Numbered from the stretch's first letter, positions 636 through 57,757 are shown. The stretch is DNA of 64,000 nt from Candidatus Saganbacteria bacterium (GCA_016932255.1 JAFGDE010000012.1:58049-122048), one strand, 5' to 3'. Notes: generated by a model from the sequence alone, not told the origin. Translations and numbers: made by a program.

Positions 636-656
636 GCGTGCTATAATTGGGTCATG
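636..656 (+). promoter_or_regulatory. Extended -10 promoter (TGcTATAAT 639-647) 6 nt upstream of the rarA ATG; probable leaderless transcript
   Basis: gTGcTATAATtgggtcATG read directly; no SD sequence. Confidence 0.4.
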
Positions 657-3227: not shown

Positions 3228-3256
3228 TTGAGAAATTTCGCTTCATTAGCTATAAT
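3228..3256 (+). promoter_or_regulatory. Sigma70-like promoter for larB (TTGAGA-N17-TATAAT), ATG 7 nt downstream
   Basis: TTGAGA 3228-3233, 17-nt spacer, TATAAT 3251-3256, ATG 3264. The ORF-track TTG start at 3228 lies inside the promoter. Confidence 0.45.
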
Positions 3257-3263
3257 CACTCTG

Positions 3264-3980
3264 ATGAGCAAAAAAGCTTATGAAGACATCGGCTTTGCCA
3301 AGATCGATCACCTCCGCATCAAGCGCAAGGGCTTCCCTGAAGTGATCTTCTGCCAGGGCAAGACCCCGGCTCAGATCGCCCAGATCGCCAAAAGGATCGC
3401 GGCCAATAAGCATGACGTGTTGGCTACCCGGGCTGACAGGAAAGATTTTCAGGCAATAAAAAAGGTCATCAAAAAAGCAAAGTATCACCCCGAAGCCAGG
3501 ATTGTCACATTCAAAAACACTGGCTACCGGCTACGGACTACTGGCTCCGTTGCGATCATCACCGCCGGCACATCCGATATCCCAGTTGCCGAAGAAGCCG
3601 CCGTGACCGCGGAATTTCTCGGCCTTAAGGTCGATCGGATATTCGATGTCGGCGTGGCGGGCATTCACCGGCTGGCCAGTAACCTGGAACGGATCAATAA
3701 AGCCAAAGCAGTCATCGTGGTCGCGGGCATGGAAGGGGCACTCCCCTCAGTCGTCGGCGGCTTGATCGAACAACCGGTCATTGCCGTTCCCACCAGCGTC
3801 GGCTACGGCGCCAACTTCAAAGGGCTGTCCGCGCTGCTCACAATGATGAACAGTTGCGCACCTGGCGTGGCCGTAGTGAACATCGACAATGGTTTCGGCG
3901 CCGCGGTCATGGCCTTTAGTATTTTAAAGAGTGCCGGAGCATCCCCCTCTCCCAGAGGGAGAGGGGGAAAGAGGGGGTGA
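3264..3980 (+). CDS. larB: Nickel-pincer cofactor biosynthesis protein LarB (PurE-like P2CMN carboxylase/hydrolase)
   Basis: ITAGTSDIPVAEEA, VAGMEGALPSVVGG and VIAVPTSVGYG motifs of the LarB/PurE-like family. Start moved to ATG 3264 (MSKKAY...). Confidence 0.8.
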   Translation: MSKKAYEDIGFAKIDHLRIKRKGFPEVIFCQGKTPAQIAQIAKRIAANKHDVLATRADRKDFQAIKKVIKKAKYHPEARIVTFKNTGYRLRTTGSVAIITAGTSDIPVAEEAAVTAEFLGLKVDRIFDVGVAGIHRLASNLERINKAKAVIVVAGMEGALPSVVGGLIEQPVIAVPTSVGYGANFKGLSALLTMMNSCAPGVAVVNIDNGFGAAVMAFSILKSAGASPSPRGRGGKRG

Positions 3981-7206: not shown

Positions 7207-7736
7207 TGGATCAGCGGCAGGAATTCAGACCATCTCCAGTGGCGCGCTCCGGTGATACGGCCGATTATCCGGCCGGACCGGTCGATGATAATGGTCGTGG
7301 GAAAAGCTCGAATGCCGTAAAGGCGGGCTATTTTGCCGTCGCTATCCAGCAGCACCGGAAAAGTATGACCCTCATTATCAACATACTGCTTGACCCGTTC
7401 CTGCGGCTCATCAACGCTGACCGCCAGGACGACGAATTTGTTCTTATCGGAATCGTTGTGCATTTGCTGGATGGTCGGCAACTCTGACCGACACGGCGGG
7501 CACCAGGTCGTCCAAAAATGCAGGAAGACCAGTTTGCCTTGATGGTCGCTCAAGCGGTGGACATTACCTTTCAGGCCGCGCAGAGTGAAGTTAGAGGCAG
7601 CCACCAGCTTAGCCTCAGGGGCCCTGGGCACTTTGCCCATCGCCTGGACCCCGGCACCCAGCCCCTGGACCCAAAAGCAAACCAAGAGGAACAGAGCGAT
7701 ATATCTCAGAGCTTTACGATGCATTTGGTCGGACAC
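7203..7736 (-). CDS. TlpA/ResA-like periplasmic thiol:disulfide oxidoreductase
   Basis: 177 aa, signal-anchor plus thioredoxin fold with WCPPC. Confidence 0.75.
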   Translation of the reverse strand: MSDQMHRKALRYIALFLLVCFWVQGLGAGVQAMGKVPRAPEAKLVAASNFTLRGLKGNVHRLSDHQGKLVFLHFWTTWCPPCRSELPTIQQMHNDSDKNKFVVLAVSVDEPQERVKQYVDNEGHTFPVLLDSDGKIARLYGIRAFPTTIIIDRSGRIIGRITGARHWRWSEFLPLIQ

Positions 7737-8500
7737 TTGGCCACGGCAGGTTCAGCCGCAGCATCCCCTTTTTCATAATCAACGCGGGCCAGATTATCCT
7801 TGATCTCATAAGCGCCGGGCGCGTTCTTGACGCAAAGATTGCAGCCGATACAGCCAACCTTACAGGCTTTGCGCACCACAGCAACCTTATCCTTTGAATT
7901 ACAGCTGACCACAACGCGATTGGAACACGGGACCAGTTCAATTATTTTTCTGGGACAGGCATGGACGCACAGGCCGCAGGCCGTACATTTCAATTCATCA
8001 ACATGCGGCAGGCCGTCTTCCCCCATTTTGATCGCGTTAAAAGGACAGACAGCCACACAGTCGCCAAAGCCGAGACAGCCATAAGTGCAGGCCTTATACC
8101 CTCCGGCGACCAGTTCAGCAGCCGCGCAGGTCTTGACCCCTTGATAATCAGCCCGGGCCGCGGCCAACTCTTTAGTACCGCCGCATTTGACCACCGCGCG
8201 CTTCTTGATCCCCGCCTCTGCTGTGATGCCCAGGATCTCAGCGATCTCATCCATTACTACGGATCCGCCGGGCGGGCAATTCAATCCGGTCAGGTCGCCC
8301 TGGGCCACGATCTTTTCCGCCAGGTCATGGCAGCCAGCCTGGCCGCAGGCACCGCAGTTAAGCCCGGGCAAGGCCGCGCTTACAGCCAGGACCTTGGGGT
8401 CCTCTTCGACATGGAGCTTCTCCGAAGCCACGGCCAGCACACTGGCAAAGAACAGTCCCAGTCCGCCCATTGTTACTAAAGCTATGAGAAATAAATTCAT
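7706..8500 (-). CDS. rnfB: Rnf complex subunit B (polyferredoxin)
   Basis: N-terminal TM helix, CGACGQAGC cluster, multiple 4Fe-4S ferredoxin CxxCxxCxxxCP motifs. Confidence 0.85.
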   Translation of the reverse strand: MNLFLIALVTMGGLGLFFASVLAVASEKLHVEEDPKVLAVSAALPGLNCGACGQAGCHDLAEKIVAQGDLTGLNCPPGGSVVMDEIAEILGITAEAGIKKRAVVKCGGTKELAAARADYQGVKTCAAAELVAGGYKACTYGCLGFGDCVAVCPFNAIKMGEDGLPHVDELKCTACGLCVHACPRKIIELVPCSNRVVVSCNSKDKVAVVRKACKVGCIGCNLCVKNAPGAYEIKDNLARVDYEKGDAAAEPAVAKCPTKCIVKL

Positions 8501-8541
8501 CCCACTCTCTCCATCCCTCTATCTCCCCATCTCTCCATCTG

Positions 8542-9120
8542 TTAACCCGATATAAGCCCCGCAAAGCCCATAAAAGCCAGGGCCAGTAATCCCGCAATGA
8601 TCAGCGTTATCGGTGCACCTTTAAAATGCTCCGGTACCGGCGCCAGGTCAAGTTCCTCGCGGATGCCGGCCATGATGCAAAGCGCCAAAGTAAAACCCAC
8701 CCCGGCGGCCAGACCAAAAGTCACGCTTTGAAGAAAATTATATTCTCTTAAAGCTGCTAAAAGCGCCAGGCCCAGGATAGCGCAGTTAGTGGTGATCAGC
8801 GGTAAAAATATGCCCAGCGAGCGGTAAAGCGCCGGCGAGGTCTTTTTGATGAACATTTCCACGAACTGCACCAGCGAAGCAATAACTATAATGAAAGAGA
8901 CATACTGCAAGAATGGCAGGCCAAAGGGAACAAGGATGAGATTATTGATCAACCAGGTGACCATAGCGGCCAGCACCATGACAAAGGTCGTGGCCAAGCC
9001 CATGCTGAGCGCTTTTTCCAGTTTATTGGACACGCCCAGGAAGGGACAGATGCCCAAAAACATGCTCAGAACAAAGTTATTGACGATCGCCGCAGAGATA
9101 AAAATCAATAACAGGTCCAT
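8542..9120 (-). CDS. rnfA: Rnf complex subunit A
   Basis: 192-aa polytopic membrane protein with full-length RnfA/NqrE-family similarity. Confidence 0.9.
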
Positions 9121-9121
9121 G

Positions 9122-9778
9122 TTAGTTCACCTCCGCCTGCGAGTCAACAGGCAGGCAAGCAGGCGCGGCCTGCTGTTGACCGGTCTTTTCTTTGAGATAG
9201 TTCAGCAGGCCGATCAGCAGGCCCAGAGTAATAAAAGCGCCGCCCGGCAGGATCATGATGACCCATGGTTCGAAATTGACCAGGCCGAACAGCGAGCCCG
9301 TACCAAAGATCTCCCTGATCGTGCCCAGCACGGTCAGAGCAACAACAAAACCAGAGCCCATACCCAGCGCATCGACAAAGGACTTCGCCGGGTCGTTCTT
9401 TGAAGCAAAGACTTCGGCCCGGCCCAGGATGATACAGTTGACCACGATCAAGGGCACGAACGGTCCTAAGGCCTTGGAAATATCAGGAAAGATGCCTTTG
9501 AGGAACAGGTCAGCCATGGTCACAAAAGTGGCAATGACCACGATAAATGAAGCGATCCTGACCTGGTCAGGGATAAGTTTCCTGATCAATGAGACGATCG
9601 TACTGGAACAGACCAGAACAAAGGTCGTGGCTAATCCCATGGACAGGCCGTTGATGGTGCTGGTCGTTACGGCCAGTGTTGGGCACATGCCCAGCAACTG
9701 CCTGAAGACCGGGTTCTCGTCCCAGAGGCCTTTGAGGTATTCCGTAAGATATCCGCGTTTTACTTTGCTTGCTGCCAT
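9122..9778 (-). CDS. rnfE: Rnf complex subunit E
   Basis: 218 aa, RnfE/NqrD family ([10 protein letters not shown]...). Confidence 0.9.
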
Positions 9779-10308
9779 TGCTGCACCGTTTTATTAATGA
9801 TGTTCACTACCGCCCGGCTGGAGATGGTCGCGCCTGTGATCGCCTCGATCTGGTTTAACTTGCTGGGCTTGGCGCTTTTGACATATTCGATCGGCGGCTT
9901 GCTGGCCAGGCCCTTGAACTGGGCGGTAAAAGCGCCTTCCGCGATCTTAGCGCCCAGGCCGGGTGTTTCAACCTGCTCCAGCACGATCATGCCAGTGAAC
10001 TTGGAAAAGTCGGCATTAACGCCGACCATCATCTTGATCACGCCCTGATAACCATTGCCCTGACAAAGAATAGCTGTACCGGTCTTTTCTCCCCGTTGAC
10101 CATAGCATTCAAAATACGTCAGGTCTTTGTCCGATATCTGCTTGTATTTGACCGTGCCGGGTACGACCTGAAAGACCGCAGCGTCGTTGGCCTTGATCTG
10201 GTTGACCTTGATCTTGGGCTCGGCCCATTGATACATCAGCGAGAGAATGCCGCCGGAGACCAGGCCGATCACGCTCAGGACCACGATCATTTTTGTCAGT
10301 TTGTTCAC
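9760..10308 (-). CDS. rnfG: Rnf complex subunit G (FMN-binding)
   Basis: Start moved to GTG 10308 (VNKLTKMIVVLSV...) overlapping the rnfD TGA (GTGA). The ORF-track N-terminal 60 aa overlap rnfD and are probably not translated. Confidence 0.75.
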   Translation of the reverse strand: MNKLTKMIVVLSVIGLVSGGILSLMYQWAEPKIKVNQIKANDAAVFQVVPGTVKYKQISDKDLTYFECYGQRGEKTGTAILCQGNGYQGVIKMMVGVNADFSKFTGMIVLEQVETPGLGAKIAEGAFTAQFKGLASKPPIEYVKSAKPSKLNQIEAITGATISSRAVVNIINKTVQQWQQAK

Positions 10309-16341: not shown

Positions 16342-16679
16342 TTGTTTATGATCAACCGTCCTTTCGCTTCCTGGCTCTGGCTCTTGATCAGGTAGAGGTA
16401 GATCCCGGAAACGACATCTTCCCCAGCTTGGTTCTTCAGGTCCCAGCTGGCCTGTCCGTCGCCGTCGGTCTCGCTGATCCTGCGCACCAGCGAGCCGTCC
16501 AGCATCGTGATCTCGATGGTGCAGACAGCCGCCAGGTCGATAAAAACGACTTCGTTCGATCCCTGTCCCATCACGTACGGGTCAGGGAAGACCTGGCTGG
16601 TGGTCACGGTCTCGGTACAACCCGACAGCAGCAGACCGGCGATAAACAATAGACCAATTGTTATAATTAATGGTCTCAT
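16338..16679 (-). CDS. Mini-lipoprotein consisting essentially of a T9SS type-A C-terminal sorting domain (FlgD-Ig-like)
   Basis: 113 aa; lipobox LLLSGC; C-terminus ...GDGQASWDLKNQAGEDVVSGIYLYLIKSQSQEAKGRLIINK matches the TIGR04183-like tail and the adhesin tail. 4-nt overlaps on both sides. Confidence 0.5.
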   Translation of the reverse strand: MRPLIITIGLLFIAGLLLSGCTETVTTSQVFPDPYVMGQGSNEVVFIDLAAVCTIEITMLDGSLVRRISETDGDGQASWDLKNQAGEDVVSGIYLYLIKSQSQEAKGRLIINK

Positions 16680-19600: not shown

Positions 19601-20410
19601 TAAATTTGTTTTTGTGCCGGTAATATCACCATCGGCGATCGGGTTCCAGCCGCCGCCGTTGACCTGGTATTCAAAACTGCCGTTGACCACGCCGCAGGAA
19701 TCAGCCTCGCCATCCTTGATGCGGAAAGTTATCGCGATTCTACCGGTCCCGTCAGTATATTGTGATAATGCTGGCAGAACATTATCAGAAGAGCCATTAT
19801 TCAAGATCGGGGCAGTATTGAGAGGAGTATAATCAACTGTTGCATAAACCTGCGTTACATAAGGATTCCTTGTAACATCATTAGTATAAACGCCGTAAGC
19901 TTGTAAGGCATTTGAACCAACACCATTGATATCATCCACCGCCCAAGCCAGTCCAGTCTTTGGATTTGTCGCATAGTCATAAGTTCTGGTAGCCCAACTG
20001 TTGGCTGTCGGTGTCACTCCAGGATCGACGGTATCATAATTATTCCCGCCGACCAGAAGCGCTGATCTGATATTTGAAGTCTGACCACCCTGTTTCCTTT
20101 CATGCCTATATGTAAGCCTTAAGAAATTGATCGTTGAGCCAGCCGGCACGCTAAAAGCGGGAAAACTGAACAGGTTTCGTCCCGTTGCTGTAGCCCAGAT
20201 ATAACTGCCATCATCATCAGCCACAGCTTCGTTCACTTTATCATAGTAACTGCCCGTACTGCCTCCCGGGGGATTAATATAATCAATCCAAGTTCCAGTA
20301 TGAGAATGATCGCCAGTAGGCCGCTGGGTCTGCGTAACTGAAAGTGAAGGTAAAGCCCAAACACAGAGAATTACAAATACAATCGTTATATGAATAGCCA
20401 GCCGGCTCAT
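16676..20410 (-). CDS. Giant secreted surface protein/adhesin: signal peptide, two ~337-aa tandem repeat modules (Ig/FN3-like), SbsA-type Ig domain, T9SS type-A C-terminal sorting domain
   Basis: 1244 aa. Repeat 1 (NTAPILNNGSSDNVLP...) and repeat 2 (NTAPALNDGSTQNQLP...) are ~60% identical. C-terminus YAYPNPFKPNPPDNHTTVTFTNLGSVSTIKIFTLRGDLVKTI...SGLYLYVVKSGNDIKRGKLLVIK is a classical Por_Secre_tail pattern. Confidence 0.8.
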   Translation of the reverse strand: MSRLAIHITIVFVILCVWALPSLSVTQTQRPTGDHSHTGTWIDYINPPGGSTGSYYDKVNEAVADDDGSYIWATATGRNLFSFPAFSVPAGSTINFLRLTYRHERKQGGQTSNIRSALLVGGNNYDTVDPGVTPTANSWATRTYDYATNPKTGLAWAVDDINGVGSNALQAYGVYTNDVTRNPYVTQVYATVDYTPLNTAPILNNGSSDNVLPALSQYTDGTGRIAITFRIKDGEADSCGVVNGSFEYQVNGGGWNPIADGDITGTKTNLSSATDYSGTLHTLVWDNSKEHIDDAVSTNVQVRFNISDGALTSADGTSPSGFNVDNLDPAALAATDITSRPQAGGTTVILDCSFTESNPNTNTFYLALNGPTYGAGTAGQSNTADPSAQAVAAGATLDGNDYISKVRCVAVDDFGNVGINETLAPANDGVTPYTPPAPTVDTPTVTTVNVTVNKNASEASGLEYAIRESGGQYVQAGGTLGGAAVWQTIAAWGTKTVTGLSAPVSNYVFSTKSRNPNGDNPESSLSGGASSANTAPALNDGSTQNQLPVLVQATDRSGRITFTFRIRDLDLDDCSVVSGSVQYQVNGGGWNNILDADVAGTKTGLSSASDMSGTLHTLVWDNSKEYIDDAYSQNVQIRFQVDDGSSNSTYGVSPTGFNVDNLDPAVASATDIQTQPRAGQTTVTLSAAFTEINPDTNTFDLALNGGAYGSPTTGEANTATPSPQATAVGATLDGNDYVSQVKCTAVDDFGNIGDNENTSPSTVKQYIKPYTPAVPTVSNGTATTADVKINKYPAEVAGLEYSIYVSSHNKYVQTDGTLGDSAAWQPTFDWGTITVTGLSDPVSDYYFKVKSRNTSDAADQTTSQSDLSDAANTTGLPPVPEGVVSYFPSAGADNVSPEAVVSVTFDRDMSTLEVQAVFSMEAVYDNSGNFVYTPVSGAFSWARNRVLTFTPAATLSKGYTYRVRLSGPVKDFDGNDLTLDLTWTFRTVLDRQISNIFFSADGRTKVVLSLGAVSNDAYIDINRNPINDPREIDPAKITEANAKVLLENDPFKYPFTSSISEINAYGTDDVRITSDFAAPVTISLYYDDENDDGYVDNTSPRIMEKALKIYRLDEDHGLWIRMPNSIVDADQNCVSAVVSHFSVYTLMATAFEDVSAAYAYPNPFKPNPPDNHTTVTFTNLGSVSTIKIFTLRGDLVKTINETDGDGVASWNVQNDSGEALASGLYLYVVKSGNDIKRGKLLVIK

Positions 20411-20450
20411 TTACTTGATATTTTATGCTTATAATAGCGATGTTTCAAGC
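20411..20450 (-). promoter_or_regulatory. Sigma70-like promoter of the adhesin operon (TTGAAA-N17-TAAAAT), start codon 9 nt after the -10
   Basis: Minus strand reads gcTTGAAAcatcgctattataagcaTAAAATatcaagtaaATG. Confidence 0.35.
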
Positions 20451-20478: not shown

Positions 20479-20832
20479 TCAGCGGCCTATCAATAAAGCC
20501 TTATCAGGAACTGTCAGCCGTTCATTTTCACTGACCACCTGGCTGGCGTGCAGCCAGGCATTGGCCGTTGAGATAATCAGGGTTGACAGGGCTACTGCTT
20601 GCCAGCGCATGCCCTGGCCCGGGAACAGCATCTCGGACAGCCGGCGTTCAGCAAAGCTGCTCCAGAGCGCGGCGAACGGCAGGGTCTGCCAGAAAGTGAT
20701 GTCAAATTCCTGCAGGAAATTGACCTGCCCGGCTTCGCTGGAAACAGCCGTTGCCGGCAGCGTTGGCGCTGTGGTCAGCAGCAGCCAGGCGGCTAGCCAC
20801 AGGCTCAGCAGGCTTTTCCCCCTGCTGCTCAT
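20479..20832 (-). CDS. Hypothetical small secreted protein
   Basis: 117 aa with N-terminal signal peptide. 4-nt overlap with the upstream membrane-protein gene. No recognisable domain. Confidence 0.4.
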   Translation of the reverse strand: MSSRGKSLLSLWLAAWLLLTTAPTLPATAVSSEAGQVNFLQEFDITFWQTLPFAALWSSFAERRLSEMLFPGQGMRWQAVALSTLIISTANAWLHASQVVSENERLTVPDKALLIGR

Positions 20833-21926
20833 CGTTCTCTGACCTTCCTGACCAGCCTGCCGTAATAGACCGCCGCGGCCATTTCATCCGCGACAGCCTC
20901 AAGCATCTTCTCCAGGTCATGGGTGATATTCAGGCCTTCGCCATGGCTGAACAAAATAAAAAAGCCGACCGTCTTGCGGCGGAAGACCAGTTTTCTGACC
21001 AGTTCTTTTTGGATGAATTCCTTGCCCAAAAAGATCCCCTGAACATTATCTAAGACGTCGCTGATTTCTTTGATCTTCTTGCTGCGTAAAGCGGATAGGA
21101 ATTCTTCCGGAACGCCCATGTTCGCGCCGACCCTGACCACCTTCTTTTTATCCATCAACACGATCAAACCCGAATGCAGTCCCAGGACCGCCAGCATCTT
21201 TTCCAGCGCATCTTTAAGCATGACATCGAGATTAAACACGTGGGTAAGTGTCCAAAATATCGAAGTAAAAGCAGAATATTTTCGCTCAACGTCCCTTTCC
21301 CTGTTCAAGGCTGACTCAAGGTTGAGCCGTTCCTTCCCCAGGTACTGGATAATAAAGACCTCGCACAGGGAGATACAAAAGAGCACGATAGGCAGTACTA
21401 TCCCGTTCACATGGCACAGTTTAGGCAGGTATTGCTGGTCGATTATTAATCCGCCGTCTATTTGGACCAGCGGCAGGACACCCAAAGAGACCAGTATCAA
21501 CATGCTTTCATAAAGACCTATGGTTAAGAGAGCCCAGATCAAGGGGCCATAAGCTGAATACGGCGACCAAAAAGGCACAAGCGCAATAAACAGAACATAA
21601 GCGATAACATAAGGGCTTTGCGGCCCGCCGCTGAAATAATTAAATAACGTCATAACGATCAGATCAACAATGCCCAGGAACGTCGAGAGGAAAATTATCT
21701 CGTTAAGCGAGATCTTCTGAGTGCGCAAATAATAATAAGTTAACAAGGAATAAAAAAGGATGCCTAAGCCCAGCAGCATCAGCACAAAAACGTTCTCTGA
21801 GAGCCTGACACAAAAAATGTTCTGGATGACCAGGATAACAAAAAAAGAACCGCCGAGCAACAGACGGAAATTATTCATCCAGTAGACCCTGTCGATAATC
21901 TCTGTCTTGGTGTACCTGGGAAGCAT
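20829..21926 (-). CDS. Polytopic membrane protein with C-terminal cytoplasmic GAF-like domain
   Basis: 365 aa, about 8 predicted TM helices, then ~150 aa resembling the C-terminal half of a GAF domain. No kinase or output domain. Confidence 0.55.
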   Translation of the reverse strand: MLPRYTKTEIIDRVYWMNNFRLLLGGSFFVILVIQNIFCVRLSENVFVLMLLGLGILFYSLLTYYYLRTQKISLNEIIFLSTFLGIVDLIVMTLFNYFSGGPQSPYVIAYVLFIALVPFWSPYSAYGPLIWALLTIGLYESMLILVSLGVLPLVQIDGGLIIDQQYLPKLCHVNGIVLPIVLFCISLCEVFIIQYLGKERLNLESALNRERDVERKYSAFTSIFWTLTHVFNLDVMLKDALEKMLAVLGLHSGLIVLMDKKKVVRVGANMGVPEEFLSALRSKKIKEISDVLDNVQGIFLGKEFIQKELVRKLVFRRKTVGFFILFSHGEGLNITHDLEKMLEAVADEMAAAVYYGRLVRKVRER

Positions 21927-21981
21927 TTGCCGATTATATTAGAACATATCACAGCTAAAAGCAACAAACCTTTCCCCTGCG

Positions 21982-22010
21982 TTGAAAAGGCCCGGCGGCT
22001 GCGCTATAAT
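21982..22010 (+). promoter_or_regulatory. Sigma70-like promoter of panD (TTGAAA-N17-TATAAT), ATG 9 nt downstream
   Basis: TTGAAA 21982-87, TATAAT 22005-10, ATG 22020, no SD. Confidence 0.45.
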
Positions 22011-22019
22011 AATAGTTCA

Positions 22020-22361
22020 ATGTTGCTTACGATACTTAAATCCAAGATACACTTGGCCAAAGTGACCGATAACCAGCTCTATTACGAAGGCAGTATTGGC
22101 ATTTGCAAGGACCTGATGAAAGCCTGCGGCCTGTTGGCCGGCGAAAAAGTCCAGGTGCTCAATTTCAATAATTCCAACCGTTTTGAGACTTACGTGATCG
22201 AAGGCCAGAAAGGCGAGATCTCCCTGCGCGGGCCGGCGGCCAAGCTCGGCAAAAAAGGCGACAAGCTGATCATCCTGGCCTACGCCCTGATGGACCCGAA
22301 CGAGGCAAAGATGTTCAAGCCCAAGGTCATCAAAGTTGATGACCGGAATGAGTTGAGATGA
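22020..22361 (+). CDS. panD: Aspartate 1-decarboxylase
   Basis: MLLTILKSKIHLAKVTDNQLYYEGSIGI aligns with PanD (pyruvoyl Ser in YEGS). Start moved to ATG 22020. Confidence 0.85.
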   Translation: MLLTILKSKIHLAKVTDNQLYYEGSIGICKDLMKACGLLAGEKVQVLNFNNSNRFETYVIEGQKGEISLRGPAAKLGKKGDKLIILAYALMDPNEAKMFKPKVIKVDDRNELR

Positions 22362-22711: not shown

Positions 22712-22776
22712 TTTTCCGGCTTGCGGCCTTTTTTCATTAGTGCTACAATCAAAATCTCTTGATAAGGAGGAAAATC

Positions 22777-23652
22777 ATGTCCAAAATGCTTAAAATAGGC
22801 CTACCCAAGGGCTCGCTTCAGGAATCCACTTTTGAATTGTTCAAAAAAGCCGGCTGGAACATCAAGGCCTCTTCACGTTCATACTACCCTTCGGTGGATG
22901 ACGCTGAGCTGGAAGTCATGCTCAGCCGGGCCCAGGAAATGGCCCGGTATGTTGAGAGCGGCGTGATCGACTGCGGCCTGACCGGCATTGACTGGGTCAT
23001 GGAATCAGGCTGCAAGGTCAAACAGGTCGCCGACCTAGTCTATGCCAAGCAGGGCTTACGCAAGGTCCGCTGGGTGCTGGCTGTACCGGAAAGCTCAAAA
23101 TTCAAGACCGTCAAGGACCTGAAAGGCAAACGCATCGCCACCGAGCTGGTCAACGTGACCAAGAAATGGCTCAAGGCCAGCAAGGTCAATGCTTCGGTTG
23201 ATTTCTCCTGGGGCGCGACCGAGGCTAAACCGCCGGAGCTGGCCGACGCGATTGTCGAGCTGACCGAGACCGGCTCATCCCTGCGCGCCAACAAGCTCAA
23301 GATCATTGACACGGTCATGGAAAGCAACACCGTGGTCATCGCCAACCAGGACTGCCTCAAGGACCCTTGGAAAAAGGAAAAACTGGACAATCTTATCACG
23401 CTGCTGCAGGGCGCGCTGGTGGCTGAAACCAAGGTCGGTTTGAAGATGAACGTGATCAAGAGCCGCCTGCGTCAGGTGCTCAAGCTTCTGCCGGCACTTC
23501 AGACCCCGACGATCTCTGAACTTACCAATGCCGCCTGGGTGGACCTTGACACAGTGGTCGATGAAAGTGTTGTCAGGGAACTTATCCCGAAACTGAAGAA
23601 AGCTGGAGCCAAGGGCATCATCGAATACCCGCTGAACAAGGTCATCGAGTGA
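22777..23652 (+). CDS. hisG: ATP phosphoribosyltransferase, long form with C-terminal regulatory domain
   Basis: HisG signature throughout. Start at ATG 22777 with AAGGAGG 6 nt upstream and TACAAT at 22743-48. Confidence 0.9.
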
Positions 23653-26386: not shown

Positions 26387-26983
26387 CTAATAAGCCATCA
26401 TCCTCAAGTACATCGGCCCGTAGATAAAGTTGATCATGATGATCGAAAAGACAAAACTAACGACGATGGCCAAACCGATCACTGCCAGTGTATAAAGCAA
26501 TACCCTTTCTGCGGGTGTATCAAGGACCTCTTTCAGACCCAAATATAAAAGATAAAGACCGTACAAGCCCAGAATGGAAAGCACTCCCAGTCCAGGGACA
26601 AGCGAAAAGATCCCGACCAGCCAGGCCGGCGTCATTGAGTAAGCAACTACCTTCATGGAGCCTGCCAAGTCTGCCCTGGCTTTAAAGACCGGCGCCAGGA
26701 CCTTGACCAGCCAGCCAACAGCGAACAGCGCAGCCAGGTTCAGCACATAGCCAATTACCGCTCCTAACAGCGACTGGAGCAGCGGAGCCCGGACAATTCC
26801 GCCGACCGGCAGGCTGATGCCGACCAGCGTGATGCCGATCAAGCCGGCAACTGACGGTATCAGCGCCAACGGCGCCGCGTAATTGACAAAAAGAGCCTTG
26901 ATATCTGTTTTCTCGGCCTTGATCGTCTGCCATTCTTCCTTGGGGTGGATAATGATGTCCCGCGCCCGGTCAAAGATGTTCAT
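26387..26983 (-). CDS. Yip1-family integral membrane protein
   Basis: 198 aa; N-terminal cytosolic segment then five TM helices in the Yip1/DUF1282 pattern. Confidence 0.65.
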   Translation of the reverse strand: MNIFDRARDIIIHPKEEWQTIKAEKTDIKALFVNYAAPLALIPSVAGLIGITLVGISLPVGGIVRAPLLQSLLGAVIGYVLNLAALFAVGWLVKVLAPVFKARADLAGSMKVVAYSMTPAWLVGIFSLVPGLGVLSILGLYGLYLLYLGLKEVLDTPAERVLLYTLAVIGLAIVVSFVFSIIMINFIYGPMYLRMMAY

Positions 26984-27093
26984 TTAGCTTACCTCCTTGA
27001 ATAATAAACTGATTTTATCATTCATAACTTGTGCAAACAAGCCGGTTTTGTTAGAATTCGAGCGACAGGAGCAAAAGTCCGAGGAGGCTGACA

Positions 27094-28359
27094 ATGAAAA
27101 AACTTTTCGTTATGATCCTTTCCCTGGCTCTAATCGGCAACAGCGCGTTTGCCATCTACGCGCCGCGCGCTATGGCTATGGGCGGCGCTTTTACCGCAAT
27201 AGCTGATGATGCTTTTGCCGCATACTGGAACCCGGCCGGTTTTGCCATTAATCCTGGCGTGGACCTGGCCGGCTCCTACCAGATGACCAACCGCAATGCG
27301 CAGATCGGCGACAACACTTTCGCTCTCAAGGGCTGTTTTGAAATTGGCATGAATCCCTTTGCCTGGGTCGCGGGCATCGGGCTGGCTTCGATTGTCGCCT
27401 ATCAGGGCGCCCGATATCTGGCTGACCAGGATGTGATCAAAAAGAACTGGGGCCGGGCTGAAGAAAAACAGGCCAAGGAAGAATCCATGTCAGAAGAGGT
27501 CAAAGAAGAGGACGAAAAAGCCGAAGCAGCAGGCAAGGAACCGGTCAGGGAACCGATCTCCCGGAAGGAAACAGTGAAGAAGGCCGCAAAAAAGGCCGGT
27601 GAGGCGGCTATCCATGTGGGAGACCAGTTCATTAATGCTGTGGCCCGGGAAGTTCCCAAACAGACCAACATCTATCTCTACGCGCCCGGCTGGTACCAGC
27701 CGAACTATTACCGGCCTAACTATTGGGATAATAGGTATATGTATAAAGAAAAAGAATTGACTCCGCAGGGCAAAGCTCAGTTCGCCATGGGGCTGACCGT
27801 TATATCGGATAAAAACGCCGTGCTTGACCAGGATACGGGCTGGTATTCCTTTTCCCTAGCTTCTGGTTACGGCGAAATAGTCGCCCTGGGCGCCAATATC
27901 AACGCATACGATCTGAAGATACCAAGCCTTAATGTCAGAGGTATTGGCGCCGGCATGGATGTGGGCGGCCTGATCCGGATCAATGAATCATTGATGTTCG
28001 GCGTGGCGGTCAAGGAACTGCTGACGACCGACATCAAGTTCGAGAACGGTTTTATCACGCGCTACCAGATGTCAGTCAATTCCGGAGTGGCCATCAAGCC
28101 CATCCCGCAGGTGACCGTTGCCGCCGATGTTCACAATCTTTTTGAGCAGAGCGGCCGGCCAGCGACCATGCACTACGGCGTTGAGATGCGGCCGATCTAT
28201 GGACTGGCCTTACGCGCTGGCCTGTCAGATACCGATACCAGCCAGAGCAATAAGACCGCCGGCATAAGCGTCGGCTTCGGCCAGATGATCATTGACTACA
28301 CCTATCTGGGCGGGGAATATAACCGGACCCAGATGATCGGAGCGACCTGGAAGATATAA
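27094..28359 (+). CDS. PorV/PorQ-like outer-membrane beta-barrel protein (paralogue of 14902-16341) with an acidic low-complexity insert
   Basis: Signal peptide then APRAMAMGGAFTAIADDAFAAYWNPAGFA motif. C-terminus ends in an aromatic residue typical of OM barrels. Confidence 0.5.
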   Translation: MKKLFVMILSLALIGNSAFAIYAPRAMAMGGAFTAIADDAFAAYWNPAGFAINPGVDLAGSYQMTNRNAQIGDNTFALKGCFEIGMNPFAWVAGIGLASIVAYQGARYLADQDVIKKNWGRAEEKQAKEESMSEEVKEEDEKAEAAGKEPVREPISRKETVKKAAKKAGEAAIHVGDQFINAVAREVPKQTNIYLYAPGWYQPNYYRPNYWDNRYMYKEKELTPQGKAQFAMGLTVISDKNAVLDQDTGWYSFSLASGYGEIVALGANINAYDLKIPSLNVRGIGAGMDVGGLIRINESLMFGVAVKELLTTDIKFENGFITRYQMSVNSGVAIKPIPQVTVAADVHNLFEQSGRPATMHYGVEMRPIYGLALRAGLSDTDTSQSNKTAGISVGFGQMIIDYTYLGGEYNRTQMIGATWKI

Positions 28360-32715: not shown

Positions 32716-33792
32716 TCACTCACTCAACGAGTCTGATATCTTACCCTTCTTTATTAGACTATTGATGTTCTTCCACCAGGTCGCGCCGAATTCGAAGAGA
32801 TTATAGAACAACGGGCTGTAAGGGAAATCATACGCGCCAATGAACCTGACCTGTTTGCCGTTAAAGCCTTTTTTAAAGCGATAGACCCCGTATAAAGGAT
32901 GCTCCGGCCTTGGATCAACAGGTATGCCCCAAAGATCATATATTTTATAACCCTTGGCTTTAGCCCACTGGATGATATACCAATGCAGCAGATGATTGGG
33001 CATTACATTACGGTGCTCGGAGCGCGAGGCGCCGTACATGTACCAGACCCGCGAGCCGAAACAAAAGACAATGACCGCACCGACAGCCCGTTCATTGTAA
33101 TAAGCGATAAAACAGCTGCCCATATTTTTTTTGAACAGCAGTTCCCTGATCGATTGATAATACTTGAGGGGATGGATCATGAACTTGTCCCGGCCGGCGG
33201 TCTCCTGATAGATGTTGAAGAAGAGATTGACGCCTTTTTCGCTCGCATCTTCTTTGATCGTTACGTCTTTCTTGATCGCCAGGCGCACATTGTAGCGGGT
33301 CTTTTCCTCAAAACTTTTGAGGATATCGGCGCTGTCCCTGGTCAGATCGAGCAGAAAGGTCGCTCGCGGCTGGACCTGCTTGGCCGAGCGCACGAACCCA
33401 AGTGTTTTGAGCGTCTCCAAAGCCGGGCTCTGATCCGCGCTAACGTCCGGCACTTCTGGATCGATCTTCAGGGAAATTGCTTTATACGCATCAGCCTCTT
33501 CCTCGATCGCGCTGAGCAGGAATTCGACCTGCTCCCGGTTGGCCAGGCTGACCAGTGGTCCGCGCGGCGCATAAAAGACCGAATAACCGATATAAGGGAT
33601 CTTCTTTTTGAGGATGGAAACACCGGCGACCAGCTTGCCGTTATCTTCGACCGCGATGCGCAACGGTTCCCAGCTAAAGAGGGATTTTAATTCGCCCCAC
33701 TCAAATGATTGAAGGATCGGAGATGACCTTGAGGCCGCGACAAAATCGTTCCACAGATCCCTGTCAGCATAAGTTATCAGTCGCTTCTTCAT
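32716..33792 (-). CDS. FemAB/FemX-family aminoacyl-tRNA-dependent peptidyl- or aminoacyl-transferase
   Basis: 358 aa in the FemAB-family (GNAT-like double domain) layout; adjacent to murE. Confidence 0.65.
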
Positions 33793-33810
33793 CTGTGCTA
33801 TAATTATAAC

Positions 33811-34374
33811 ATGATTTTAATGATCGATAACTATGACAGTTTTACCTATAATCTAGTCCAATATATGGGTGAGTTGGGCGCGCAGCTTGATGTCTATCGC
33901 AATGACAAGATCACCATCGCACAGATAGAAAAACTTAAGCCCGAGCGCATCGTCATCTCGCCTGGTCCGGGCCAGCCAAAGGACGCGGGTATCTCTGAAG
34001 AAGTGATCAGGACTTTTGCCGGTAAAGTGCCGATCCTCGGGGTCTGTCTGGGAGAACAAGCCATGGCCGAGACATTCGGCGGCAGGATCGTGCTGGCCAA
34101 GAATCTGATGCATGGCAAGACCTCAGAAGTGTATCATGACGGCAAGACGATCTTCAAAGGCCTGCCCGACCCTTTTACAGCCACCAGGTATCATTCACTG
34201 ATCGTGGAAAAGAAAAGCCTGCCGGATTGTTTTGAGGTCTCGGCCTGGACGGATCAGGATGAGATCATGGGGATCAGACATAAAGAATATAAGCTAGAAG
34301 GCGTGCAGTTCCACCCGGAATCTATTTTGACTTCGTCTGGGAAGGCCCTTTTGGCGAACTTTTTGTCTCTGTAG
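33811..34374 (+). CDS. Glutamine amidotransferase component II of anthranilate/aminodeoxychorismate synthase
   Basis: 187 aa class-I GATase with catalytic Cys in GVCLGEQ and His/Glu in HPES. TrpG or PabA cannot be distinguished by eye. Confidence 0.85.
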
Positions 34375-34624
34375 CACCTCGACTTTGCTCGGCGCTAGTT
34401 TTCTTTGGCTCTCCTGCTTTCTGCTCTCCACTTTCTACTTTCGACTTTCTAGAATAGTCGGTCACATGAAAGCCTGAACCTTTAAAGACAATGCCGACTG
34501 GAGAAATGAGTTTTTTGATCGGTCCCTTGCATTCGGGACAGAACTTAAGCGGCTCTTCTGAGATCTTCTGCATCACCTCAAAAACATGGCCGCATTTCTG
34601 GCATTTATAGTCGTAAAGTGGCAT
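34322..34624 (-). CDS. FmdB-family zinc-ribbon regulatory protein
   Basis: [16 protein letters not shown]...CPECKG is the classical FmdB zinc ribbon, followed by a charged tail. 53-nt convergent overlap with the GATase gene. Confidence 0.7.
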
Positions 34625-34652
34625 GGAATAATTATATCACAAGGGGCAAGCT

Positions 34653-42824: not shown

Positions 42825-42850
42825 GATATATATTGTCAGATAATATTTTG

Positions 42851-42868
42851 TGCTATAATATCGCCATG
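42851..42868 (+). promoter_or_regulatory. Extended -10 (TGcTATAAT 42851-59) 6 nt before ATG 42866; probable leaderless start
   Basis: Same geometry as the rarA promoter. Confidence 0.4.
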
Positions 42869-43499: not shown

Positions 43500-44528
43500 C
43501 TAGATCAGTTTGTCCGTGATCATCTTTTGAGCGATCAGGACAGCGTTGAGCGCGGCGCCGCGGCGCAGGTTATCTGAAACGATCCACATATCAATGCCGT
43601 TCTCCTGGGAAATATCCTCGCGAATACGGCCGACAAAGGTCTCATTCCTGCCTTCGCACTCGATCGGCGTCGGATAAATGCCTTTAGCCGGATCATCCAT
43701 GACCACGCAGGTCGGAAAGCTGCCTATCAGCTTCCTGACCTCGGCTATTGATATTTTCTTTCTGGTCTTGACATTGACCGTTTCCGAATGGCCGATAGCC
43801 ACGGGTACGCGCACGCAGGTAGCCGTGACCTGGATATTATCGTCCTCAAAGATCTTCCTGGTCTCGTCATACATCTTCATTTCTTCTTTGGTATAGCCGT
43901 TGTCAGTGAACTGATCAATCTGCGGCACGCAGTTGAAAGCTATCTGCTTAAAGATATATTTCGCCTCGACCCTGGCCCTGGGATCGGCCAGCAGTTTCTT
44001 GGTCTGGTCGTACATCTCGGCGATCGCTTCTTTGCCCCAGCCGGAGGTCGATTGATAGGTCGAGACCACGATCCGCTCGATGCCGGCCTTATCATAGATC
44101 GGTTTGAGCGGCAGGACCATTTGGGCGGTCGAGCAGTTCGGGTTGGCGATAATGCCTTTATGGCGTTTGATCGCCTGCGGATTGACCTCGGGCACGACCA
44201 GTGGCACACTGGGATCCATGCGGAACTGGCTGGTGTTATCAATGACCACGCAGCCGGCTTTGGCAGCTTCGGGCGCAAAGACCTTTGATACTTTAGCGCC
44301 GGCCGAGAACAGGCCGATCTGCATGTCTTTGAACGATCCGGGTTTAGCTTCCTCAACAGTGTATTCTTTACCCCTGAAAGTGACCTTGCTGCCGGCAGTC
44401 CTCTCGGAAGCCAGCGGCAGGAAACGCGCGACAGGGAAGTTCTGCTCCTCAAGTATTTTGATCATCTCTTTACCGACCATGCCGGTAGCGCCGAGAACAC
44501 AAACGTTGTAATTATTGGCCATTCTCAC
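43500..44528 (-). CDS. asd: Aspartate-semialdehyde dehydrogenase
   Basis: 342 aa; Rossmann VLGATGMVG and the catalytic Cys region. Confidence 0.9.
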   Translation of the reverse strand: MRMANNYNVCVLGATGMVGKEMIKILEEQNFPVARFLPLASERTAGSKVTFRGKEYTVEEAKPGSFKDMQIGLFSAGAKVSKVFAPEAAKAGCVVIDNTSQFRMDPSVPLVVPEVNPQAIKRHKGIIANPNCSTAQMVLPLKPIYDKAGIERIVVSTYQSTSGWGKEAIAEMYDQTKKLLADPRARVEAKYIFKQIAFNCVPQIDQFTDNGYTKEEMKMYDETRKIFEDDNIQVTATCVRVPVAIGHSETVNVKTRKKISIAEVRKLIGSFPTCVVMDDPAKGIYPTPIECEGRNETFVGRIREDISQENGIDMWIVSDNLRRGAALNAVLIAQKMITDKLI

Positions 44529-44599
44529 TCCTCCTTAACAAAAAGAACCATGACCCAAAGGCCGCTGGTTCCTTTATTCAGGAAAATTATAGCATAATG

Positions 44600-44608
44600 T
44601 GGTATAAT
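44600..44608 (+). promoter_or_regulatory. Extended -10 TGgTATAAT 12 nt before the gmhA ATG
   Basis: Read directly. Confidence 0.35.
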
Positions 44609-44620
44609 TGCCAATCTGAC

Positions 44621-45193
44621 ATGCAGGAAATCATTAAAAAAGAACTTCAGGCCGGTATAAGTCTTAAGCAACAGGTGCTCAACGACCTGGTGCCGCAGAT
44701 AGAACAAGCCGCTAAAATCATTATCGGGGCGCTTAAAAAGGGCAATAAGATCATGCTCTTCGGCAACGGCGGTTCAGCCGCCGATGCCCAGCACCTGGCA
44801 GGTGAATTGGTCGGCCGTTTTCTCAAGGACCGATCTGCCCTGCCGGCAATTGCATTATCTACGGACACTTCCGTATTGACATGTCTGGCCAATGATTTCG
44901 GCTATGAGACAGTATTTGCCCGCCAGATCGAAGCTTTGGCCAAGCCAGGGGACATTGCTTTTGGCCTGTCCACCTCAGGTAATTCTCTTAACGTAATGCT
45001 GGCCTTGGAAAAAGCCGAACAGATCGGCTGTAAAACGATCGGTCTGCTGGGCAAGGACGGCGGCAAGATCGCCGGAAAAGTCGACCTGGCACTGACGGTC
45101 AGGAGCCAGGCCACACCCCGGGTCCAGGAATGCCATATTACTATAGGCCATATTATCTGCGGGCTGGTAGAACAGGAGATCTTTGCCAAGTGA
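44621..45193 (+). CDS. gmhA: D-sedoheptulose 7-phosphate isomerase (SIS domain)
   Basis: Aligns from MQEIIKKELQ with E. coli GmhA; GNGGSAADAQH and STSGNS motifs. Start moved from 44597 to 44621. Confidence 0.85.
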   Translation: MQEIIKKELQAGISLKQQVLNDLVPQIEQAAKIIIGALKKGNKIMLFGNGGSAADAQHLAGELVGRFLKDRSALPAIALSTDTSVLTCLANDFGYETVFARQIEALAKPGDIAFGLSTSGNSLNVMLALEKAEQIGCKTIGLLGKDGGKIAGKVDLALTVRSQATPRVQECHITIGHIICGLVEQEIFAK

Positions 45194-45753: not shown

Positions 45754-45796
45754 TTTTTCTGGCGCAGCTGCCCAAATTAAGCTATAATTATCTGTC

Positions 45797-47248
45797 ATGG
45801 AAAATCTCAAACTGCTCATTCCCAAATTAAAGGGCAAAAAGATCCTTGTCTTTGGGGACCTGATGCTGGATGAACATATCTGGAGCAAGGTTGAGCGGAT
45901 CTCCCCCGAAGCCCCGGTACCGGTCGCTGACGTTTCCCGGATCACTCATGTACCCGGCGGCTGCGGCAACGTGGCGGTCAACATCGCCGCCCTGGGCGGC
46001 ATTCCCTACCTGGTCGGGATCATCGGCCGGGACAGTTCCGGAGAAAAACTGAAAAAGGCCCTGAAACAGGCTTTTGTGCCTGTCCAACACCTGGTCCTGG
46101 AGCCTTCGCGGCCAACGATCCTCAAATCAAGGATCATTGCCGCTTCGCAGCACGTGGTCCGTGTCGACCGTGAAGACAGGACAGAACTTTCCCCTGCCCT
46201 GCTCAAACGTCTGAGTTCTAAACTGAAACAGCTGATCACTGCTGTCGACGCAGTGATAATTTCCGATTACGCCAAAGGCGCGGTCAATCATCAAACTGCT
46301 CAATTAGCTATTTCCCTGGCAAAGAAGCATAAAAAGTTCGCGGCGGTCGACCCTAAAGGCAGCAGCTACGCCCGCTACCGCGGCGCCTCGATCATCACGC
46401 CGAACCTCAAAGAAGCCGGGGAAGCCTCCGGCCTGGCCATAACTGACGCCGAGAGCGCGGCCCGGGCCGGCAAGGCCCTCCTGAAAAAGTGCCGCAGCGA
46501 TAACATACTTATCACCCGCGGCGGCGAAGGCATGTCGCTTTTCTCTGCCAGGGAAACCGTCAATATCCCGGCCGTGCCGCGCGAGGTCTTTGATATTACC
46601 GGAGCCGGCGACACGGTGATCAGTACGCTAGCTCTGGCCATGGCAGCCGGCGCCCGGATCAAACAGGCCTGCCTGCTGGCTAATACGGCGGCTGCGGTCG
46701 TTGTGGGCAAGATCAGCACTGCACCCTGTTTCCGCGAGGAGCTGGAAGAAGCCCTGGAAGGGCACGAACCTATAACCAGAAAGATCAAGCTGCGGCAGGA
46801 ACTTAAGGCTATCGTCCAGAATCTAAAGAATGACGGCGCCAGGATCGTCTTTACCAATGGCTGCTTTGATATATTGCATCTCGGCCATGTCCGTTACCTG
46901 CGCGAAGCCAAGCGCCTGGGTGACACGCTGATCGTGGGCCTGAACAGCGACGATTCGGTCAGGGCGCTGAAAGGCAGGGACCGGCCCTATGTTTCCGAAC
47001 TGGAACGGGCCGAGATCCTGGCCTCGCTGGAATGCGTCGATTATGTGACGATCTTCAGCGAACTGCGGCCCGATAACCTTATCAAGGTGGTTAAACCTGA
47101 CATTCATGTCAAAGGCGGCGATTATAAAATTGGCCAATTGCCCGAAAAAAAACTGGTCGAAAAGCTCGGCGGCAAGGTCGTGGTCATCCCGCCGATCAAG
47201 GGCCGCTCAACGACCAATATCGTTGAAAGGATACTATCAGGAAAATGA
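45797..47248 (+). CDS. hldE: Bifunctional D-beta-D-heptose 7-phosphate kinase / heptose 1-phosphate adenylyltransferase
   Basis: 483 aa; N-terminal ribokinase-like domain and C-terminal cytidylyltransferase TNGCFDILHLGH. Confidence 0.9.
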   Translation: MENLKLLIPKLKGKKILVFGDLMLDEHIWSKVERISPEAPVPVADVSRITHVPGGCGNVAVNIAALGGIPYLVGIIGRDSSGEKLKKALKQAFVPVQHLVLEPSRPTILKSRIIAASQHVVRVDREDRTELSPALLKRLSSKLKQLITAVDAVIISDYAKGAVNHQTAQLAISLAKKHKKFAAVDPKGSSYARYRGASIITPNLKEAGEASGLAITDAESAARAGKALLKKCRSDNILITRGGEGMSLFSARETVNIPAVPREVFDITGAGDTVISTLALAMAAGARIKQACLLANTAAAVVVGKISTAPCFREELEEALEGHEPITRKIKLRQELKAIVQNLKNDGARIVFTNGCFDILHLGHVRYLREAKRLGDTLIVGLNSDDSVRALKGRDRPYVSELERAEILASLECVDYVTIFSELRPDNLIKVVKPDIHVKGGDYKIGQLPEKKLVEKLGGKVVVIPPIKGRSTTNIVERILSGK

Positions 47249-56789: not shown

Positions 56790-57740
56790 TTAATCGCCGT
56801 GGACCAGGCCGTGATAGAACTCGGCATATTTATCTTTTTTCTCGCTTGCCCTGAGCGCCATAGCGGCCCGTGGGTGCTGGTTCAGAATGCCGGTGACCAT
56901 GTAGGGAATGATGTAGCCCCACTCGATCTGTTCGCGCAACGGCAGGAACTCTTTTTCGATCACTTCCAGGATCGGTTCAAGGTCGAATTTCGGGTTCTTG
57001 AGAAAAGCCAGCAGCAACTCCAGGGGGCAGTTGCCGGCCGCGCGGCCGATGCCATAGATCGTGCCGTCAAGATAATTAGCGCCTTTACGGATCGCTTCAA
57101 TGGTATTGGCAAAGCCCAGCTGCTGGTTGTTGTGCGCGTGCATGCCGACCTCTTTGCCTTTTGGCTTGAGGTATTTTGCATAGAGATCGACCAGGAAATG
57201 GACCTGCTCGGAGAACAGCCCGCCAAAGCTGTCAACGATATAAACAGCCTGCGCCGCGCTTTCGGCCAGACCGGCCAGGCCCTCTTCCAGGTCGGGCTGC
57301 AGTGCCGTGGATATCGCCATTATGTTGACCGTGGTCTCATAGCCTTTTTCCGCAAAGTGGTTGACCATGTCAATGGCCTTGTCGATATCCTTGACATAGG
57401 TCGCCACGCGTATCATATCGACCACGCTTTTTTTCTTGGGTGCAACCTTGTCCATCTCCACTCGGCCGATGTCGACCATGGTCGAAAGCTTGGTCCTTGA
57501 CTTGATCCCCTCGATCGCTTTTTTAATATGGTCCTCGTCGCAGAATTTCCACTTGCCGTATTTATCAGGGGAAAAGAATTTTTTCGAAGCCTGATAACCC
57601 AGCTCACAATAATCGACACCGGCCAGAGAACAAGCTTGATAGACCGCCCTAACGAAGTTGTCTTCAAAACAGTGGTCGTTAATCAAGCCGCCGTCACGGA
57701 TGCTGCAGTCCAATACTTTGATCTCAGGTCTATACATCAT
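56790..57740 (-). CDS. DRE-TIM metallolyase (HMGL-like aldolase catalytic domain) protein
   Basis: CSIRDGG and HAHNNQQLGFANTIEA motifs of pyruvate carboxyltransferase / 4-hydroxy-2-oxovalerate aldolase-type barrels. Confidence 0.6.
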   Translation of the reverse strand: MMYRPEIKVLDCSIRDGGLINDHCFEDNFVRAVYQACSLAGVDYCELGYQASKKFFSPDKYGKWKFCDEDHIKKAIEGIKSRTKLSTMVDIGRVEMDKVAPKKKSVVDMIRVATYVKDIDKAIDMVNHFAEKGYETTVNIMAISTALQPDLEEGLAGLAESAAQAVYIVDSFGGLFSEQVHFLVDLYAKYLKPKGKEVGMHAHNNQQLGFANTIEAIRKGANYLDGTIYGIGRAAGNCPLELLLAFLKNPKFDLEPILEVIEKEFLPLREQIEWGYIIPYMVTGILNQHPRAAMALRASEKKDKYAEFYHGLVHGD

Positions 57741-57757
57741 AATCCGCTAATTATAGC

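Follow-up and report, generated by a model that had tools for sequence, protein, structure and literature searches.

In the GeneMarkS-2 classification, genomes of group C are those in which a Pribnow box stands 6-8 nt before operon-first genes and Shine-Dalgarno (SD) sequences are used elsewhere; 25-50% of their operons are predicted to be leaderless (PMC6028130). Group C is common in Actinobacteria and Deinococcus-Thermus, with Mycobacterium tuberculosis and Deinococcus deserti as examples, and Cyanobacteria mostly fall into group X (Lomsadze et al., 2018, PMC6028130). For D. deserti, a passage in PMC4007540 gives 60% as the share of mRNAs that start at or very near the start codon. TA-led genes are defined by a TANNNT motif with its first T about 12 nt 5' of the start; the motif takes the form TAtaaT in genomes of medium GC, and initiation mode shifts between orthologues as phylogenetic distance grows (Zheng et al., 2011, PMC3160421). 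Full-text literature searches returned no paper pairing leaderless mRNAs with Margulisbacteria, Saganbacteria or WOR-1. A paper that apparently tied Saccharibacteria to group C was rejected, as the match was a coincidence of its reference list. Extended -10 promoters of the TRTGn type are found in Gram-positive bacteria and Campylobacterota, where the -35 element is weak or absent and the mRNAs are mostly leadered.

The DNA analyzed here is a stretch of 64,000 nt (the window) from a metagenome-assembled genome (MAG) of the uncultured Candidatus Saganbacteria (WOR-1/Margulisbacteria). Its RarA matches a protein of a Candidatus Saganbacteria bacterium MAG at 100% identity. The RarA relatives at 77-87% identity carry the names Margulisbacteria, Margulisiibacteriota, Saganbacteria or WOR-1, and a Logan contig from run SRR13394437 has the same sequence as the window. 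The gene set was built by hand from the ORF list and comprises 67-68 genes, with 67 starts counted. Spacers are given as the count of bases that separate the last base of the hexamer from the ATG. The window gave no match in scans for Rfam families and tRNAs, so no riboswitch or leader RNA accounts for the upstream regions.

The original prediction was that TATAAT or TGnTATAAT boxes recurring shortly before start codons in this DNA point to widespread leaderless mRNAs, and that a count of TATAAT before starts should exceed shuffled controls. Exact TATAAT occurs at 49 sites on the two strands of the window. It precedes 10 of the 67 gene starts at spacer 5-10, compared with 1 of 1,866 non-start ATGs (Fisher p = 1.4e-14). 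When the 40-nt upstream regions were shuffled 2,000 times with dinucleotides preserved, such starts averaged 0.32 per shuffle and never exceeded 3. The count thus favors the prediction on the window. All ten of these starts have spacers of 6-10, with five at exactly 6; at spacer 0-5 the exact hexamer precedes none of the window's gene starts, and farther upstream it is limited to scattered single cases. Seven control hexamers of the same base composition gave a flat spacer profile with no peak. The pattern in the window is therefore far beyond chance.

The seven boxes that had been listed (at rarA, larB, panD, an exported protein, gmhA, hldE and a surface protein) were all read where they had been placed. 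A search for TATAAT followed within 15 nt by the start codon of a long ORF added five box genes, with starts at 21926 (-), 33811 (+), 33792 (-), 34624 (-) and 57740 (-). The rarA gene (+) has the extended -10 element TGcTATAAT at 639-647, followed at spacer 6 by ATG 654 (feature 639..656), and this box sits in the 22-nt gap after crcB. The crcB gene (fluoride channel, in the 245-653 region of the window) is directly 5' of rarA, and a DUF4342 gene precedes it, as seen in locus L001; a fluoride riboswitch was not found in the window by Rfam, the region 5' of position 245 being mostly outside the window. At larB (+), TTGAGA-N17-TATAAT at 3228-3256 precedes ATG 3264 at spacer 7 (feature 3228..3266), and this promoter is the best-scoring match of a generic promoter scan. 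The gene for a 1244-aa surface protein (16676-20410, -) has TTGAAA-N17-TAAAAT at 20448-20420 and ATG 20410 at spacer 9 (feature 20408..20448), with no SD (anti-SD energy -0.2 kcal/mol). Its earlier label of adhesin was not upheld, as the protein ends in a C-terminal sorting domain of the T9SS type (Por_Secre_tail). Since this secretion system is found mainly in Bacteroidota, the domain is unexpected in a Saganbacteria MAG.

Two further box genes are divergent from each other. A 365-aa protein of unknown family (-) has TATAAT at 21938-21933 and ATG 21926 at spacer 6 (feature 21924..21938), and panD (+) has TTGAAA-N17-TATAAT at 21982-22010 and ATG 22020 at spacer 9 (feature 21982..22022). The 365-aa protein (20829-21926) is lineage-specific, and a metagenome scan with it found no relatives. 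An FmdB-type zinc-ribbon protein (-) has TGaTATAAT at 34639-34631 and ATG 34624 at spacer 6 (feature 34622..34639). The gene for a 210-aa exported protein (+) has TGcTATAAT at 42851-42859 and ATG 42866, again at spacer 6 (feature 42851..42868). This product (42866-43498) had been called a lipoprotein, a label that does not hold, as it has a Sec signal peptide (…LPALA/QDQ) and no lipobox cysteine; NCBI annotates it as a hypothetical protein, and its gene adjoins asd and gmhA in the related loci L162, L163 and L165. The gmhA gene (+) has TGgTATAAT at 44600-44608 and the longest spacer, 12, before ATG 44621 (feature 44600..44623), and hldE (+) has TATAAT at 45783-45788 and ATG 45797 at spacer 8 (feature 45783..45799). 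An aldolase-family protein (-) has TATAAT at 57755-57750 and ATG 57740 at spacer 9 (feature 57738..57755), with the box in the 17-nt gap behind the stop codon of the upstream gene. The remaining two genes, trpG/pabA and a FemAB-family gene, share one small gap and are described below.

It might be argued that the geometry is an artefact of chance, of AT-rich intergenic composition or of wrong start choice, and the last point deserves attention because four starts (3264, 22020, 42866 and 44621) were picked as the ATG behind a box and are not those of the longest ORF. Chance is excluded by the shuffles and the non-start ATG controls, and in eight of the twelve box genes no possible start codon of the ORF precedes the ATG. 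The other four are backed by profile alignments, by the N-termini of relatives and by NCBI annotation. The alignment to the NCBIfam profile begins at residue 1 in RarA, PanD, GmhA, TrpG/PabA and FmdB; in HldE and in the FemAB-family and aldolase-family proteins it begins within a few residues of the N-terminus. In exact-sequence look-ups, the NCBI annotation has LarB at 238 aa, PanD at 113 aa, the exported protein at 210 aa and GmhA at 190 aa, all of which correspond to the box-adjacent ATGs. We therefore regard an artefact as extremely improbable.

The same look-ups bear on the ORF-track starts at 3228, 21927, 42833 and 44597, which had been suspected to be wrong because they lie inside the promoters. 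The suspicion is supported. For larB, panD and gmhA, NCBI has the short forms, and the long forms occur only in Logan calls, which begin at TTG 3228 (12 codons longer), TTG 21927 (31 codons) and ATG 44597 (8 codons). The form of the exported protein that starts at 42833 is absent from the protein collection by exact-sequence look-up, where NCBI has the 210-aa form. Prodigal-type callers thus place starts within these promoters, and three of the four alternative starts here are extended by 8-31 codons. Since starts are called inside promoters, N-termini, signal peptides and intergenic analyses of Margulisbacteria MAGs will carry systematic errors unless starts are called with leaderless-aware software.

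The bases next to the hexamers help to identify what the boxes are. When start-proximal TATAAT sites of the window and its relatives were pooled (50 sites) and compared with 314 other TATAAT sites, a TG one base 5' of the hexamer was present at 29/50 and 41/314, respectively, an enrichment of about 4.5-fold (p = 2.7e-11). Column frequencies 5' of the hexamer are T 60%, R 82%, T 76% and G 76%, then n and TATAAT, and TGn is present at 7 of the 12 box sites of the window. The TRTGn element is the extended -10 or '-16 region', which contacts the sigma subunit of RNA polymerase. Its presence indicates that the hexamers are -10 elements acting at the DNA level and not merely AT-rich DNA or mRNA. A conserved -35 element is not evident at these sites. 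The best -35 scores at start-proximal sites do not exceed those at the remaining TATAAT sites, although three window sites (larB, panD and the surface protein) have TTGAAA or TTGAGA at 17 nt from the hexamer. A generic -35/-10 promoter scan of the window gave 14 pairs against 13.6 expected, i.e., no excess, which fits promoters without a -35; the scan was rejected as a useful test.

These features bear directly on another explanation, in which the promoters are distant and the TATAAT-like stretch is an A/U-rich, SD-independent translation enhancer in the mRNA, as proposed for non-SD genes of Bacteroidota and Cyanobacteria. Such an enhancer would suit box genes without an SD, and Cyanobacteria, the sister group of the lineage, are mostly without clear start signals (group X, PMC6028130). 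However, an mRNA element that depends on composition does not account for the absence of a peak with the seven same-composition hexamers, nor for the enrichment of the TGn/TRTGn extension, which is a DNA-level feature. The arrangement of genes points the same way. The box is found at 12 of about 30 transcription-unit heads but at no tightly coupled gene, of which there are at least 34 (overlapping the upstream gene or at most 14 nt from it), and all twelve box genes are either divergent from their neighbor or at least 17 nt behind it. Operon-internal genes never bear the box and instead have an SD (AGGAGG) or are translationally coupled, a restriction that an mRNA enhancer leaves unexplained. 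In its favor, rarA and the gene at 57740 follow their upstream genes at distances of just 22 and 17 nt, and no clear terminator intervenes; read-through transcripts carrying them internally are therefore possible, and both genes could be co-transcribed with their upstream neighbors.

The claim that box genes have no SD is borne out by the anti-SD duplex energies, which range from +1.3 to -3.3 kcal/mol in the 12 box genes compared with a median of -5.8 in the other 55 (Mann-Whitney p = 6e-6). SD-led unit heads reach from -5.0 (rnfC, weak SD) to -12.7 kcal/mol. The approximately 30 unit heads divide into 12 of box type, about 12 of SD type and about 6 that are unclassifiable (3206, 26308, 32558, 41040/40634, 41999 and 42390), so that about 40% of the heads in these 64 kb, a small sample, are of box type. 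The head at 42390 belongs to an MraZ-like gene (42255-42824, +) with an ambiguous start, as the profile alignment begins only at residue 66 of the longest ORF; ATG 42390 is 33 nt behind TATAAT 42351-42356 and has no SD.

SD-led heads carry the same promoter type at a greater distance. The contrast drawn earlier with hisG (+) is confirmed, as this gene has TGcTACAAT at 22741-22749, AAGGAGG at 22764-22770 and ATG 22777 (feature 22741..22779). For asd (-), TGnTATAAT at 44594-44586 lies 57 nt from ATG 44522, with AAGGAGG at 44536-44530 within a leader of about 55 nt (feature 44520..44594), and for rnfC (-) TGnTATAAT at 12648-12640 has a spacer of 56 and a weak SD follows. A divergent pair at 26981..27096 has leaders on both sides: a gene for a Yip1-domain protein (-) with TGaTAAAAT at 27020-27012, AAGGAGG and ATG 26983 (spacer 28), and its partner (+) with TGtTAGAAT at 27049-27057, GAGGAGG at 27081-27087 and ATG 27094 (spacer 36). 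One promoter type is thus used at two distances, far from the start with an SD and adjacent to it without one. A motif some 28-57 nt 5' of SD-led genes is explicable there only as a promoter, which again argues against an mRNA enhancer.

The rnfC gene heads an Rnf-type operon at 7706-12583 (-), in which RnfC is a 437-aa protein (11270-12583) and an RnfB-like Fe-S/4Fe-4S protein (7706-8500) is encoded at the end. By size, the four genes inside are candidates for rnfD, G, E and A. For the 437-aa gene at 12583 the identity hisD was rejected, as the gene encodes RnfC.

A compact arrangement is that of the FemAB-family gene (33792, -) and trpG/pabA (33811, +), the start codons of which are only 18 nt apart. 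The gap holds the palindrome TATAATTATA (33799-33808), which provides one TGnTATAAT per strand. TGcTATAAT at 33796-33804 (+) precedes ATG 33811 at spacer 6 (feature 33796..33813), and TGtTATAAT at 33811-33803 (-) precedes ATG 33792 at spacer 10 (feature 33790..33811), with the hexamers 33799-33804 (+) and 33808-33803 (-) overlapping by 2 bp. An 18-nt gap is too small for other signals, and with this the idea of distant promoters and an mRNA enhancer becomes very unlikely overall. The stretch 33790-33813 may be a minimal bidirectional promoter giving two leaderless, or nearly leaderless, mRNAs. Bidirectional promoters that arise from -10 symmetry have divergent starts 7-25 bp apart, and in their canonical form the distance is 18 bp with reciprocal pairing of -7T and -11A (Warman et al., 2021, as described in PMC10268837). 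The two systems are alike in that the window hexamers overlap in a palindrome and the predicted starts, 15-19 bp apart, fall inside the 7-25 bp definition. They differ in that the canonical form has near-complete hexamer overlap, while here the overlap is 2 bp and both products would be leaderless or nearly so. Assignment to the canonical 18-bp type was therefore rejected for 33799-33808, given an overlap of only 2 bp and predicted starts about 15 bp apart.

The geometry recurs in relatives. A metagenome scan with RarA gave 80 loci, of which the 28 at 67% identity or more form the rarA comparison. A TATAAT-like hexamer (TATAAT, TATACT or TAGAAT) stands 5-8 nt before the rarA start in 21 of these 28, most with TGn, and the DNA farther 5' is unrelated between loci. 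Four or five of the seven exceptions are SD-led or coupled. L088 has AGGAGA before its ATG, in L089 a 28-nt leader containing AGGAG separates TATAAT from a GTG start, and in L092 and L146 the GTG start overlaps the stop codon of the upstream gene. L086, L098 and L108 have rarA without a conserved box and with start signals that are not assignable. Box and SD or coupling are thus mostly alternatives at rarA, as the leaderless reading predicts. In three loci (L100, L103 and L105) the box, at spacer 6-8, precedes GTG instead of ATG; in E. coli, GTG is a poor start for leaderless translation.

A second comparison took no gene calls as input and searched for TATAAT at spacer 5-9 from the first ATG of ORFs encoding 100 aa or more. 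Across the 378 kb of relatives this holds for 40 of 487 long ORFs (8.2%), 18 of them at the spacer-6 peak, compared with 5 of 644 in more distant RarA loci (66% identity or less; p = 9e-11) and 6 of 1,213 in 80 loci of diverse phyla (p = 9e-17), the two controls giving 0.5-0.8%. The same peak is thus obtained without choosing starts behind boxes, which further counts against an artefact of start choice. About two thirds of the box matches in relatives belong to genes other than rarA, among them larB (box at spacer 6-8 in seven relatives' loci), an endonuclease IV gene and several genes for exported proteins. The diverse-phyla set consists of loci from an HldE search of genome contigs; among the matches listed, these had only 47% identity or less and came from many phyla, with no relatives, and they were reused as a negative control. 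Five of the six box matches in this set are from Campylobacterota (L021, L029, L073, L079 and L081, comprising Sulfurimonas, Sulfuricurvum, a Campylobacterales MAG and Campylobacter concisus), at least two of which carry TGn, and the sixth is a Termititenax (Margulisbacteria) locus, L007. L007, L031 and L002, single loci from other Margulisbacteria classes and an Armatimonadota MAG, have 7-13 ORFs each, too few to judge the trait.

Eight independent gmhA-centred loci served as a further comparison. Of their 93 TATAAT sites, 13 precede a long ORF at spacer 6-12; the background is 0.19 for each spacer position. The gmhA box is present in four loci at spacer 12, 10, 6 and 12; in L165, TATAAT is followed by a 22-nt spacer with AGGAGG, three loci have gmhA inside an operon with an SD, and the gene is SD-led in L164-L167. 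The asd gene is SD-led in the window, L162 and L165 and of box type (spacer 9) in L163. Orthologues of the exported protein have TGcTATAAT at spacer 10, 6 and 8, hldE has its box at spacer 8 in two relatives (L162 and L165), and the first gene of a V-ATPase operon has a box at spacer 9-12. For hldE of L162 (5068), the Logan call starts at a downstream TTG and misses the box-adjacent ATG. A WecA/MraY-like GT4 gene lies divergent from gmhA in L168 and L169 and elsewhere in L166. TATAAT precedes it at spacer 11 in all three loci, with TGn in L168 and L169; a strictly leaderless start would be expected to have a shorter spacer. Collectively, the comparisons suggest that the trait is lineage-wide in Saganbacteria/Margulisbacteria relatives and that orthologues (rarA, gmhA and asd) switch initiation mode.

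Taken together, it is likely that the box genes are expressed as leaderless mRNAs from start-adjacent sigma-70/sigma-A extended -10 promoters. Each sequence-level prediction of this reading that could be tested agrees with what was directly observed, namely the specificity of the motif and its extension, the spacing, the restriction to unit heads, the mutual exclusion with the SD, the true N-termini given by the start codons and the conservation. The transcription start positions and the translation mode that we infer from these observations would be as follows. Promoters of the consensus T-R-T-G-n-TATAAT, with no conserved -35, would direct RNA polymerase to start on the A of the start codon or 1-3 nt before it. 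The resulting mRNAs would have neither a 5' UTR nor an SD, and their 5'-terminal AUG would be bound by the ribosome together with initiator tRNA in the leaderless route. The remaining unit heads would use the same promoter type approximately 28-57 nt 5' of the start, combined with a strong AGGAGG.

How strictly leaderless the individual mRNAs are is predicted to depend on the spacer. As the -10 hexamer ends at -7, +1 falls on the A of the ATG when the spacer is 6 nt, and with spacers of 5-8 it stays within about 1-2 bases of that A. Spacers of 9-12, as for panD, the surface protein, 57740, 33792 and gmhA, more likely give leaders of 1-6 nt than none. For gmhA the predicted leader is probably about 5-6 nt without an SD, and this gene should not be called strictly leaderless. 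These five genes could also be taken as a sign that the promoters are real and most of the mRNAs have very short leaders of about 3-8 nt, translated by another SD-independent route; the spread of spacers from 6 to 12 in gmhA-centred relatives, and the GT4 gene held at 11, would fit such leaders. The modal spacer is nevertheless 6 both in the window (5/10) and in the relatives (18/40), and with the usual distance of 7 from the -10 to +1 transcription would then begin on the A of the ATG. Moreover, in a passage on D. deserti, exact and near-exact starts are both counted as leaderless (PMC4007540). We consider predominantly short-leadered mRNAs unlikely, and prefer leaderless mRNAs for the box genes as a class.

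The geometry equals the published definitions of group C and of TA-led genes; the phenomenon is of a well-known kind and points to no new mechanism. The novelty lies in the lineage, in the clean TRTGnTATAAT architecture and in the switching of mode documented among orthologues. We think it likely that Saganbacteria/Margulisbacteria are an unrecognized leaderless-rich group, in which about 40% of units start at the AUG by means of TRTGnTATAAT without a conserved -35 and in which rarA, gmhA and asd toggle repeatedly. This would add a lineage at candidate-phylum level, which is diderm, anaerobic, of medium GC and next to Cyanobacteria, to the short list with abundant leaderless mRNAs (Actinobacteria and Deinococcus-Thermus). 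With many orthologue pairs that differ in initiation mode now on hand, the clade would, if this is true, be a natural series for the interconversion of translation-initiation modes, and it would bear on the initiation mode of the common ancestor with the SD-poor Cyanobacteria.

Compared with group C, the window is similar in having the box near first genes, SDs on internal and leadered first genes, and about 40% of unit heads of the box type. It differs in that Saganbacteria/Margulisbacteria are not among the groups named in the text of PMC6028130. The high-GC leaderless groups have a degenerate TANNNT (PMC3160421), whereas the window has the full TATAAT with TRTGn. The TA-led genes share the position of TANNNT, and the changes of mode between orthologues described for them are seen here for rarA, gmhA and asd; that survey, however, predates the discovery of the candidate phylum, and its definition does not include the extended -10. 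With the promoters of Gram-positive bacteria and Campylobacterota, the window has in common a TRTGn directly 5' of TATAAT and perhaps a weak or absent -35, but whereas those promoters mostly give leadered mRNAs, a large share of the promoters described here abuts the start codon.
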